64,000 nt of DNA. It comes from Fibrobacteria bacterium. Lineage in GTDB: Bacteria > Fibrobacterota > Fibrobacteria > UBA11236. The translations under genes were made by a program, and so were the position numbers. How positions within the stretch are numbered: position 1 is the first letter of the stretch; the number at the start of each line of letters is the position of its first letter. The stretch is from NCBI GenBank assembly GCA_043745805.1, contig JAYTSD010000006.1, forward strand, positions 1 through 64,000. Direction: 5' to 3'. Below are positions 10,463-12,449 of this stretch, one piece after another. The notes beneath the pieces were generated by a model. That model was not told the origin of the DNA. It ran no database searches and saw nothing but the letters and a program-made list of their open reading frames with translations.

Positions 10463-10539
10463 CCATATAAGGCCTAGATAATTTGCAAGAATGGCCGCGC
10501 TCATGCAGCGAGCCCATGGACTAGCGAGGTGTAGTTTTA
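10463..10539 (-). repeat. attC-like element homologous to 9524-9600
   Basis: CCATATAAGGCCTAGATAATTTGCAA matches CCATGTAACACCTAGATAATCTACGA at 20/26; TAA-to-stop span 72 bp versus 71 bp; central hairpin ATGG..GCTC/GAGC CCAT. Confidence 0.5.
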
Positions 10540-11202
10540 TTCGCCAATTAACCTAAATAGGTATTTTTTGATCTCTGCTTTCGCCTCAACCAATAACCTT
10601 TGTTTTTCAGTTACTTCGGTTACTTCCTCGTGATTTAGATTCTTTTTTGATAAGACGCTGATGTTTTTTTTAAGCTGCTTTTCGACTCGGCTGAGTTTGT
10701 ACTTAAATTCGAGATAAGTTTTATTTAAAAATTCTCTGTGTTTGATTGACTCAGAATCATTTAAATGCAGTTGATCAATTGTCCATTCGCCCGCTGTACT
10801 TTGTTCCTTGATTTTAGCTCCAACAAATTTGAGATGATTAGTCATTATGTAATCGCAAGGATTTGGAATAAAAATTCCAGCAGAAATTTGCTCCGCACTA
10901 GGCCAAAAATTTGATTTCAATCTGTTGCAAGTATTGCAGGCTTGAAACAAATTTGAATATTCGTCTATTAAATCCGGAAATTTGGATTTGGGCTTATAAT
11001 GGTCGATTCCAAATTGGTCTTTTCTGCATAAGGAATCAGATCTTCGGCAATATATACATTTTCTTGCGAACTCTCTTCTAAGGAGAGTTTTAAGGAAAGC
11101 GCGTTGCTCTTTGTTTTTATAGCTAAGGTTTTTTTTTGGAGAATATTTCCGCAGGTGCAGGGCCTGCTGAAAATAGTAAGCAGGTATTTCGACTTTTGCC
11201 AT
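10537..11202 (-). CDS. HNH endonuclease
   Basis: CIYC...IDHYKPKSKF...YSNLFQACNTCNRLK (Zn-binding HNH); helical C-terminal tail. Confidence 0.85.
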   Translation of the reverse strand: MAKVEIPAYYFQQALHLRKYSPKKNLSYKNKEQRAFLKTLLRREFARKCIYCRRSDSLCRKDQFGIDHYKPKSKFPDLIDEYSNLFQACNTCNRLKSNFWPSAEQISAGIFIPNPCDYIMTNHLKFVGAKIKEQSTAGEWTIDQLHLNDSESIKHREFLNKTYLEFKYKLSRVEKQLKKNISVLSKKNLNHEEVTEVTEKQRLLVEAKAEIKKYLFRLIGE

Positions 11203-11204
11203 AA

Positions 11205-11678
11205 TTAATCAAGCAAATGCTCTATGCTATCAAACGAATTATTCAATCTTTCAGTAATATTTTCGAGATTTTTGAAATCCTCTTCCTGAACTCTAGGTAT
11301 TGCCATAATAGTTCTTTGAGTTGCGATTTCAAATCGAACACGATCTTCGGTTGAGAGAGACTTGGTGGCATATTTTCTGCAAAGTAATTCTAGTCGATTA
11401 TTGATATCTTGCTCAAGCTGGCTTGAAAAAATATTTTCGGAATCTTGAAAATCTGATTGCGATGAAACTTTTGTTTGTGTAAGGTTCGTCCCTTTCAATG
11501 TGTTTCCAAATAGTTTACCTAAAGCGTTTTCCTCGATTAGTTTATCAATGAGTGTCTGGAGAGGGGTATATGCAGTGTTTGAGTTTTGGTTAGTCGAATT
11601 AATAGGAGCTGAATGTTTGGCATTTAATTCTGAAAAATGCTTTTCCCAGTTATATGATGTTTCTATAGCGATAACCAT
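11205..11678 (-). CDS. Hypothetical protein (middle gene of TIGR04255-HNH operon)
   Basis: 157-aa ORF, 2 bp from HNH start, RBS AAAGGG; S/T/N/Q-rich N-half, helical C-half. Confidence 0.7.
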   Translation of the reverse strand: MVIAIETSYNWEKHFSELNAKHSAPINSTNQNSNTAYTPLQTLIDKLIEENALGKLFGNTLKGTNLTQTKVSSQSDFQDSENIFSSQLEQDINNRLELLCRKYATKSLSTEDRVRFEIATQRTIMAIPRVQEEDFKNLENITERLNNSFDSIEHLLD

Positions 11679-11705
11679 ATTAACCCTTTCTTTTAGAACG
11701 CTTAA

Positions 11706-12449
11706 CTAAGACTTTTCCTCTGGTAATTCTAGCATGCTTCTTGCTTTTTCACCTAAGCACCAATAAAAAAATGAAAAATTGTACTGGTGAAAAGATTGAA
11801 GCGTTTCCTTTATATTATCTATCGCAACCATTTCTTTATAGTAGTCGAAGTCTAAAAAATACTCAGGTTTTTGACTTTCAGATTCAAGGGGCTTCACTCC
11901 ATGTCTGAAATTATACATTCCAGTTTGAAGCCGCCCCGAAACTATTTGCGAATATTGACTAAGGTCACCAAAAGTATCATCCTCAAAAGGGCCGACTAGT
12001 TTTGGGTTAACGAACCCCTTAAACTCTACGCCATCAATAGGGATGAGGTTAATGTAGCGCAGGCCGATTCTGGTGAAAAAATCTGTGTCGATGCTCGGTA
12101 TAGATGCACTCAATACGTTTTCTAATCTTGTTAAAAAATCTTCAAAGGTTTTATAGGCTCTGGTTTCTAGTGAAATGGAATCTTGCTTGATTGTAACAAA
12201 CCATTTGCTATCTGATGAATGAAGTGTATAGTACTGCGTAGCGCTAGTTTTATTTAATCCCACATCTAATGATTTAACCGTATTAAAAAGTGGGTAGTTT
12301 TTTCGCAATTTTTTTTGGATTTCAACTGGAGGGGCTTTTTCGAACTCAAGAATTGTCGGAAATTTCATTTCACAAACCGCTGTGTTTATAAAATTCCTAT
12401 CAAATTTTCTGGAGTTGGTATGAGGTATGTTTAGAAATTTTTTTTCCAT
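11706..12449 (-). CDS. TIGR04255-family protein
   Basis: AVCEMKFP, SISLETRAYKTFEDF, TRIGLRYINLI, YFLDFDY motifs recognised by eye. Confidence 0.8.
   Translation of the reverse strand: MEKKFLNIPHTNSRKFDRNFINTAVCEMKFPTILEFEKAPPVEIQKKLRKNYPLFNTVKSLDVGLNKTSATQYYTLHSSDSKWFVTIKQDSISLETRAYKTFEDFLTRLENVLSASIPSIDTDFFTRIGLRYINLIPIDGVEFKGFVNPKLVGPFEDDTFGDLSQYSQIVSGRLQTGMYNFRHGVKPLESESQKPEYFLDFDYYKEMVAIDNIKETLQSFHQYNFSFFYWCLGEKARSMLELPEEKS

Follow-up and report, generated by a model that had tools for sequence, protein, structure and literature searches.

Zinc-finger HNH nucleases of the PtuB type act as effectors in Septu, where they are paired with PtuA (PtuA-PtuB), and in type I-A retrons, which add a reverse transcriptase and a non-coding RNA (RT-ncRNA-PtuA-PtuB). 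We analyzed a stretch of 64,000 nucleotides from a Fibrobacteria bacterium (GenBank assembly GCA_043745805.1, contig JAYTSD010000006.1, positions 1 to 64,000), referred to below as the window, which carries on its minus strand an operon of three genes, here named A, B and C (Table 1). Gene A encodes a protein of family TIGR04255, gene B a small protein and gene C a PtuB-like HNH nuclease. Comparison with related loci showed that the three genes are inherited together across phyla and translationally coupled, with A and B at times fused. We consider it probable that the trio represents a widespread cassette, both mobile and modular, of the toxin-regulator or abortive-infection kind, with A and B serving to restrain or trigger the nuclease.

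The locus shares with Septu and the type I-A retrons its putative effector, a PtuB-like zinc HNH protein of approximately 210-220 aa, and an arrangement in which the nuclease is presumably checked by partners encoded just upstream. Unlike Septu, it has no PtuA ABC/SMC-type ATPase next to gene C, and the partners, one of them a member of TIGR04255 and the other small and helical, are unrelated to PtuA. Unlike the type I-A retrons, it has no reverse transcriptase (none in Pfam among the open reading frames, ORFs, in 7900-12800) and no msr/msd RNA (no Rfam match in 7500-13000 at E<=1). Identity with Septu or a retron was rejected, as PtuA, reverse transcriptase and non-coding RNA were all missing. 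An earlier sequence-only reading of the window had noted the absence of ATPase, reverse transcriptase and methylase partners, and indeed none was found adjoining the trio in Pfam, NCBIfam and PADLOC searches. It had also stated that no named system has this architecture. This holds for A and B, since neither A, beyond TIGR04255, nor B has a model in PADLOC, Pfam or NCBIfam, but not for the HNH protein, which matches the named component PtuB, albeit without PtuA.

A second point of comparison is Panacea. As far as the consulted part of the source goes, its PanA domain (DUF4065) is a single domain paired with dozens of toxin families in bacteria and phages (PMC8832971). A together with a variable and sometimes fused B would similarly represent one conserved domain that meets many partners through a variable, toxin-specific part. 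Panacea identity was rejected, because neither A nor B matches DUF4065 (Pfam, E<=0.1). The present operons also differ from Panacea in having three genes instead of two, with the specificity part usually residing in a separate protein.

In toxin-antitoxin-chaperone (TAC) modules three small genes are transcribed together; one product is a toxin, the middle component is disordered in part, and the chaperone gene occupies the last position. The trio resembles them in its three small genes, partly disordered middle component and presumed toxin, but A is not SecB-like and the gene order differs. A SecB-type TAC module was rejected, given that A has no match to SecB or another chaperone family in Pfam or NCBIfam. 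SecB is also missing from the fold-search lists, which taken alone would not decide the matter.

Another three-gene cassette, Rst_3HP, was described at a P2 hotspot of E. coli. In the portion of the report consulted, its genes are without an evident domain prediction and confer protection from P1 (Rousset et al., 2022, PMC9122126), and the proteins (pFR109, E. coli E1114) measure about 335, 365 and 230 aa (Table S2A of the same source). Residence of a three-gene cassette in a P2-like phage hotspot is common to both. In contrast, the proteins of the present family measure about 250, 100-230 and 130-280 aa, their order differs, and the TIGR04255 motifs were not visible in the Rst_3HP sequences seen, in a comparison made by eye only. 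In the literature searched, which left out TA-network and preprint supplements, no mention of TIGR04255 or its InterPro names was tied to the family, and none of the papers listed in the search describes a three-gene PtuB/HNH architecture. We rate the core component A as undescribed and the effector repertoire as wide and mostly unfamiliar, the whole being classed as a nuclease cassette of toxin-antitoxin (TA) or abortive-infection type.

The three genes and their conservation

The ORFs of the window bear out the three tightly coupled minus-strand genes recognized in the sequence-only reading, with gaps of 27 bp between A and B and 2 bp between B and C. The AT-richness noted there was equally evident: the GC content of the trio is 0.352 against a window mean of 0.404 (standard deviation 0.017), a value reached by just 0.3% of sliding windows of 1913 bases, and no other 1.9 kb of the window is richer in AT.

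The assignment of the third gene as an intact zinc-binding HNH nuclease was upheld. C matches Pfam HNH (2e-7), and residues C49, C52, H68, N84, C89, C92 and N93, which form the zinc and catalytic motif CxxC...H...N...CxxCN, are invariant in 27 relatives. Its match to the PADLOC PtuB model PDLC00337 (1.3e-21) covers profile positions 36-194 of 216, and 71 further PADLOC models are matched as well, with PtuB in the majority among the best 25. Weak matches to retron and Septu PtuB chains were obtained among PDB sequences (E 1e-3), and HNH families of phages matched in the PHROG search. The score against the NCBIfam PtuB equivalog is only 26.6 bits, compared with a cut-off of 150, and TIGR02646 also stays under its cut-off; C is therefore PtuB-like and not a PtuB equivalog. 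It is the sole match to the PtuB model in the genome.

Gene B yielded no match among PDB sequences. In its structure model the first ~80 residues are predicted to be disordered, while residues 83-156 form three helices, with means of the predicted local distance difference test (pLDDT) over 10-residue blocks of 78-97 from residue 91 on. The model retrieved nothing from PDB at E<=0.001. The N-terminal ~80 residues are variable among relatives. Conservation is confined to the C-terminal domain (~83-156), which is characteristic of the HNH subtype, with R95, L99, E111, R115, R122 and P128 invariant. A word-index search returned B itself alone, and relatives surfaced only via synteny and a full HMMER search. 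By blastp, B matches 17 of the 19 B genes from other HNH loci (best 1.2e-14). Moreover, a search of 1.84 billion cluster representatives with the B profile gave 790 matches at E<=1e-3 (498 at E<=1e-10), so B is a member of an unnamed family and not an orphan; members among the matches listed (n=150) range from 72 to 192 aa.

The first gene had been read as TIGR04255-like, and A is a full-length member, matching the NCBIfam model over positions 1-249 of 252 (E 2.3e-34, 119.3 bits, cut-off 30). It is the only NCBIfam family that A matches, and A is its only copy in the genome. The AlphaFold model of A (pLDDT 92.8, predicted template modelling score 0.89) shows two similar halves, each with strands followed by a long helix, i.e., a duplicated, TBP-like domain. 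No clear fold relative was found in PDB or among viral structure models. Foldseek matches to PDB were weak (best E 5.2e-4, template modelling score below 0.3), the viral models gave weak TBP-like rows, PDB sequence profiles of A and of B gave nothing meaningful, and an ESM Atlas search returned only clusters labelled 'hypothetical' or TIGR04255. The best row in the structural comparison with VIA was the McsB kinase domain (Z 7.7, root-mean-square deviation 3.9 over 172 residues).

These rows bear on an alternative that we regard as improbable, namely that A itself works as an enzyme or generates a signal, for instance by binding or modifying nucleotides, with B and C as accessory or downstream parts of a sensor-enzyme to effector logic. 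The top VIA rows are indeed ATP-using catalytic domains of the guanidino-kinase and glutamine-synthetase type (Z 7.7, 7.5 and 7.3; deviations of 3.9-5.3 over 172-190 residues; guanidino kinases Z 7.3-7.5), but a Z below 8 denotes a common arrangement by the tool's own rating, TBP-like non-enzymes score nearly as well (Z 6.3), and no enzyme sequence family matches A. In an alignment of 35 divergent A proteins Y99 is invariant, and R127, R131, D200, D202 and F228 are nearly so. Such conservation suggests a ligand- or partner-binding face; the Tyr, Arg and Asp residues would also suit an enzyme.

The conservation of the trio was examined starting from C. A word-index search gave 8 relatives (68%, then 37-45% identity), and their alignment led to 24 loci in species-representative genomes, with HNH proteins of 33-44% identity. 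The loci are distributed over at least six phyla, including Myxococcota, Binatota, Pseudomonadota, Spirochaetota, Gemmatimonadota and Thermodesulfobacteriota. A strong A gene lies upstream on the same strand in 20 of them (hidden Markov model, HMM, of A proteins, E 1e-29 to 4e-49). A gene of 140-192 aa stands between A and HNH in the 19 loci from which B genes were taken (L041, a short contig near-identical to L037, was excluded), and a C-terminal domain of ~70 residues is common to all 19 B proteins. In two Thermoanaerobaculia genomes an A-B fusion lies directly upstream of HNH (L047, 2356-3336; L051, 1387-2523). The fusion proteins, of 326 or 378 aa, consist of an A-like N-terminal part (E ~1e-7) and a C-terminal B domain (E 1.4e-24 and 4.8e-20). 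Of the other loci, L035 has a contig end 35 bases upstream of HNH and L049 only a weak B-like domain (E 0.0095). Overall, A and B domains, separate or fused, precede HNH in 22 of the 24 loci, in agreement with the co-occurrence expected if the three genes form one system. No long fused A forms (>=484 aa) were found, which is weak evidence. The B stop overlaps the C start by 4 bp in 12 of the 19 loci, compared with the 2-bp gap in the window. In a comparison with type II TA pairs, defined by a small toxin neutralized by a small neighbouring antitoxin that usually carries a DNA-binding domain, B and C proved to be coupled and to co-vary, and the B of this subtype gave no DNA-binding match. Genomes with the HNH trio carry 1-4 TIGR04255 genes each.

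The synteny already contradicts the idea that the locus is what is left of a Septu or retron system after decay or reduction to a minimum, in which a PtuB without PtuA (and reverse transcriptase) happens to neighbour two unrelated genes. The best PADLOC score of the HNH protein, its many matches to PtuB models and the weak matches to PtuB chains could be read in that way. However, the same two domains precede HNH in many phyla, no PtuA, reverse transcriptase or retron RNA lies nearby, and the PADLOC PtuA model PDLC00292 matches, genome-wide, the HNH gene only. We find this explanation hardly credible.

The wider TIGR04255 family and its mobility

Of 296 genomes from the phylum of the window, 24 contain TIGR04255. 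In a sample of 401 genomes from the phylum to which one HNH-trio genome belongs the number is 32, and in 14 control genomes it is zero. In the window's phylum, 24 of the 27 other loci have A at the head of two further genes that are tightly coupled and share its strand, the remaining three (L021, L023 and L027) ending at contig ends. Twenty-one trios were used, after exclusion of L008, L011 and L025 as near-copies of L004; the less clear L015 and L022 were kept. In the second phylum, A, B and C are seen in 26 of 30 loci, the exceptions being L077 and L085 (no clear B or C), L096 (cut) and L102 (no A ORF by HMM). When the proteins of 67 trios were clustered (blastp, single linkage), the clusters of B and those of C nearly coincided. 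The C clusters comprise 20 (HNH), 11, 8, 8, 3, 2, 2, 2 and 2 members together with 9 singletons. These comparisons show that a TIGR04255 gene generally stands first in an operon of three, and that the two genes behind it vary in concert.

Almost none of the second and third genes belongs to a Pfam, NCBIfam or PADLOC family. In L081 (2234-2858) the third gene, located behind a B of 95 aa, encodes a PemK/MazF toxin (1.1e-18), and another of the rare family matches among the B and C proteins is to GNAT, in L022. Helix-turn-helix (HTH) matches of the Xre type occur in several B types, and two C types equal PHROG families of unassigned function, phrog_4575 (4e-43) and phrog_11836.

A quick maximum-likelihood tree of 66 A proteins (IQ-TREE, L022 dropped) groups them by C type. 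The nine multi-member types need 8 changes on the tree, the minimum possible, compared with 34.4 for shuffled labels. All 20 A proteins of the HNH type fall into a single clade (SH-aLRT 92) in which phyla are mixed, and the A of the window sits beside one from Burkholderiales. The A of L081 nests in a clade whose other third genes are of a different, family-less type, a position that suggests effector swapping.

The flanks differ at every HNH locus. In a scan of 134 ORFs around 23 of the 24 loci (L041 excluded), TA, defence or mobile markers were found within 4 kb at 10 of the 23, a count made without a control set and not an enrichment test. The markers are Rhs (L032), AbiJ/Abi_C (L033), RelE with HTH (L035), HipBA (L036), a C5 methylase (L037), resolvase and Rep (L038), transposase, ParA and integrase (L039), a type I restriction fragment (L042), HNH and DUF559 (L043) and Fic (L044).

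In addition, tblastn located A homologues on 10 plasmids, 7 of them conjugative, and in 10 phage records. A Vibrio plasmid carries in order an integrase, TIGR04255, HTH, a hypothetical gene and IS3. On the Rhizobium plasmid pCB3060_2 (L105) the trio lies next to IS110 and a multiubiquitin / ThiF E1-like / DUF6527 cluster (659-2956), the latter immediately upstream of the TIGR04255 trio; its ThiF protein matches the PADLOC E1-E2 models weakly. The P2-like Burkholderia phage vB_FKKS3 (L104, 1742-7519) carries an integrase, A, B, C, a toxin-antidote pair and the portal gene. Of 102 phage records matching this region, 7 have the full trio. The integrase-portal site of P2-like Burkholderia phages is a variable cargo hotspot, since close relatives with flanks at least 96% identical carry there, instead of the trio, genes for ImmA/IrrE with HTH, BrnT, DUF4065, NYN or DprA. 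With flanks that differ everywhere, a tree that mixes phyla and copies on plasmids and phages, sequence comparison shows that the trio moves as a unit.

The sequence-only reading had also taken the trio for one mobile unit, on the grounds of an attC-like element abutting the HNH stop. Its mobility is supported by the evidence above, but the attC-based argument is not. Single-stranded DNA of 10440-10545 folds no better than shuffles on either strand (z -0.94 and -0.32), the repeat search of the window gave no attC-like repeat family, and no integrase domain was detected by Pfam in 52 window ORFs (all those of at least 170 aa and the short ones between 7941 and 12449). An attC site and an integron gene cassette were both rejected.

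It could further be proposed that the cassette is moved by the HNH protein, acting as a nuclease of homing or transposition, with A and B as accessory factors. Flanks that differ in every genome would fit, as would the PHROG HNH matches, given that HNH enzymes act as homing nucleases of phages. Nevertheless, the absence of terminal repeats or an attC-like structure, and the sister subtypes that combine the same kind of A with MazF or non-nuclease third genes, which nuclease-driven mobility leaves unexplained, make this very improbable.

Possible mode of action

For the reading that we favour, that of a toxin-regulator or abortive-infection cassette, the following mechanism can be envisaged. 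C would be the toxic nuclease effector, because the recognizable third genes of the family are HNH and MazF. The three-helix C-terminal domain of B would bind and restrain C, which would explain why B is specific to the HNH subtype; it is the joint change of B and C that points to such a C-specific binder. A would provide the common domain for regulation or sensing, with a link to B that is covalent in the fusions and otherwise runs via the disordered N-terminal half of B. The nuclease may then be freed when A senses a signal of infection or stress, or when the A-B pair or the whole element is lost, and the freed nuclease would stop the cell or the invading element, in the manner of abortive infection or of addiction (TA-type behaviour). 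Its target may be tRNA rather than DNA, by analogy with the PtuB proteins of Septu and retrons. In the parts of the reports consulted, PtuB of retron-Eco7 and of Septu acts on tRNA-Tyr (PMC12673091, PMC13096335), and for this reason an RNA target for C is possible. The roles put forward in the sequence-only reading, with A as sensor or chaperone, B as inhibitor and C as toxic effector, fit with the co-variation of B and C, the A-B fusions and the MazF subtype.

The same observations can also be accommodated by a pure addiction module that stabilizes plasmids or prophages, in which the HNH toxin is countered by B as a short-lived antitoxin and A shields the disordered half of B, with no sensing of phages. 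The long, low-confidence N-terminal half of B next to its folded C-terminal domain, the existence of A-B fusions, the copies on conjugative plasmids and beside classical TA pairs and the MazF subtype are all in line with this. However, A has no match to SecB or any other chaperone family and is encoded first in the operon, unlike the chaperone of known chaperone-TA operons, and the phage cargo hotspot, otherwise occupied by defence-type genes, favours a role in conflict. We thus consider pure addiction rather unlikely, bearing in mind that the addiction and conflict readings are compatible and not exclusive.

A number of points weigh against the cassette reading as a whole. That C is toxic and acts as a nuclease, that the proteins bind one another and that the operon protects from phages is in each case inferred. 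Most C types have no known toxin fold, the view of C as a toxin being drawn from two subtypes, HNH and MazF. The B of the HNH subtype has no DNA-binding domain match in Pfam or NCBIfam and is larger than typical antitoxins. The nearly invariant Arg, Asp and Tyr residues mean that A could be an enzyme, or even the effector, instead of a sensor. Moreover, the HNH group was sampled via HNH similarity, so that it speaks for co-inheritance and is not an independent test, and the A tree is the product of a quick search only. At 13 of the 23 loci scanned, the flanking genes are limited to housekeeping or unannotated ones. Finally, the sequencing runs found to hold the locus are four DNA runs from one sediment study, with no RNA run among them.

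A broader proposal can be put forward tentatively, as we are slightly inclined to doubt it: TIGR04255 may be the common sensor or neutralizer of a large, unrecognized superfamily of three-gene conflict systems. This superfamily would occur in approximately 8% of the genomes of both sampled phyla as well as on plasmids and at phage hotspots, with at least nine recurring adaptor-effector pairs, mostly of undescribed folds or toxins, the HNH subtype representing PtuA-independent control of a Septu-type nuclease. If true, a family registered as sporadically distributed and of unknown function would mark a set of mobile defence or TA cassettes missed by current finders (PADLOC 2.0 models), and the A gene would serve as a handle for harvesting many new effector families. 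The HNH subtype would reveal a second, ATPase-free way to control PtuB-type nucleases. Furthermore, as its three parts occur naturally both fused and split, the system would make sensing, specificity and killing separable and testable in E. coli.

Surroundings of the operon in the window

The trio lies within an AT-rich stretch of 4.8 kb (GC 0.376), flanked by a carboxylesterase gene and purA, that also contains a BrnT-like/MqsA-like pair and three unassigned ORFs (Table 1). According to a Pfam scan of the ORFs, the remaining genes of the window are related to housekeeping and polysaccharide synthesis. The three ORFs between the TA pair and the trio, downstream of C, have no match in Pfam, NCBIfam or PADLOC and no relative in any other locus compared, and the unit is therefore taken to consist of three genes. 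A promoter-like site ends at 12450; such sites number 13 here compared with 14.3 in shuffles and are thus not commoner than in the latter. Synteny was also used in an attempt to define the borders of the island. The purA-crp pair is kept in 11 family relatives (n=11, one row from the unpublished genome G254) and the DNA upstream of purA is unrelated, so borders were not obtained.

Table 1. Positions in the 64,000-nt window of the operon, its neighbours and other features mentioned in the text
Feature	Position	Strand	Remarks
Gene A, TIGR04255 protein	11706-12449	minus	247 aa; ORF and NCBIfam; first gene of operon
Gene B, adaptor/inhibitor candidate	11205-11678	minus	157 aa; ORF; no family
Gene C, PtuB-like zinc-finger HNH nuclease	10537-11202	minus	221 aa; helical C-terminal tail
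ORF between TA pair and trio	10136-10504	minus	122 aa
ORF between TA pair and trio	9595-9951	minus	118 aa
ORF between TA pair and trio	8971-9507	minus	178 aa
BrnT-like gene	8306-8611		paired with MqsA-like gene
MqsA-like HTH gene	7941-8309		paired with BrnT-like gene
Carboxylesterase gene	7326-7961		
119-nt direct repeat	7833-7951 and 8668-8786		89% identical
33-nt direct repeat	9522-9554 and 10463-10495		imperfect, 73%
AAA_14 + DUF4143 ATPase gene	35027-36214	minus	

Two repeats were observed in the vicinity of the trio. The 119-nt direct repeat corresponds to the 3'-end region of the carboxylesterase gene, copied beyond the BrnT-like/MqsA-like pair, and the duplication resembles a scar such as would be left if the TA pair had inserted site-specifically into the 3' end of that gene. 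The 33-nt repeat codes for similar peptides in two ORFs. One copy encodes the C-terminus of an ORF of 45 aa, located just upstream of the one of 178 aa, and the other the N-terminus of the 122-aa ORF that lies just downstream of C. Further along the window, the gene for an AAA_14 and DUF4143 ATPase stands alone amid genes of amino-acid and polysaccharide synthesis.

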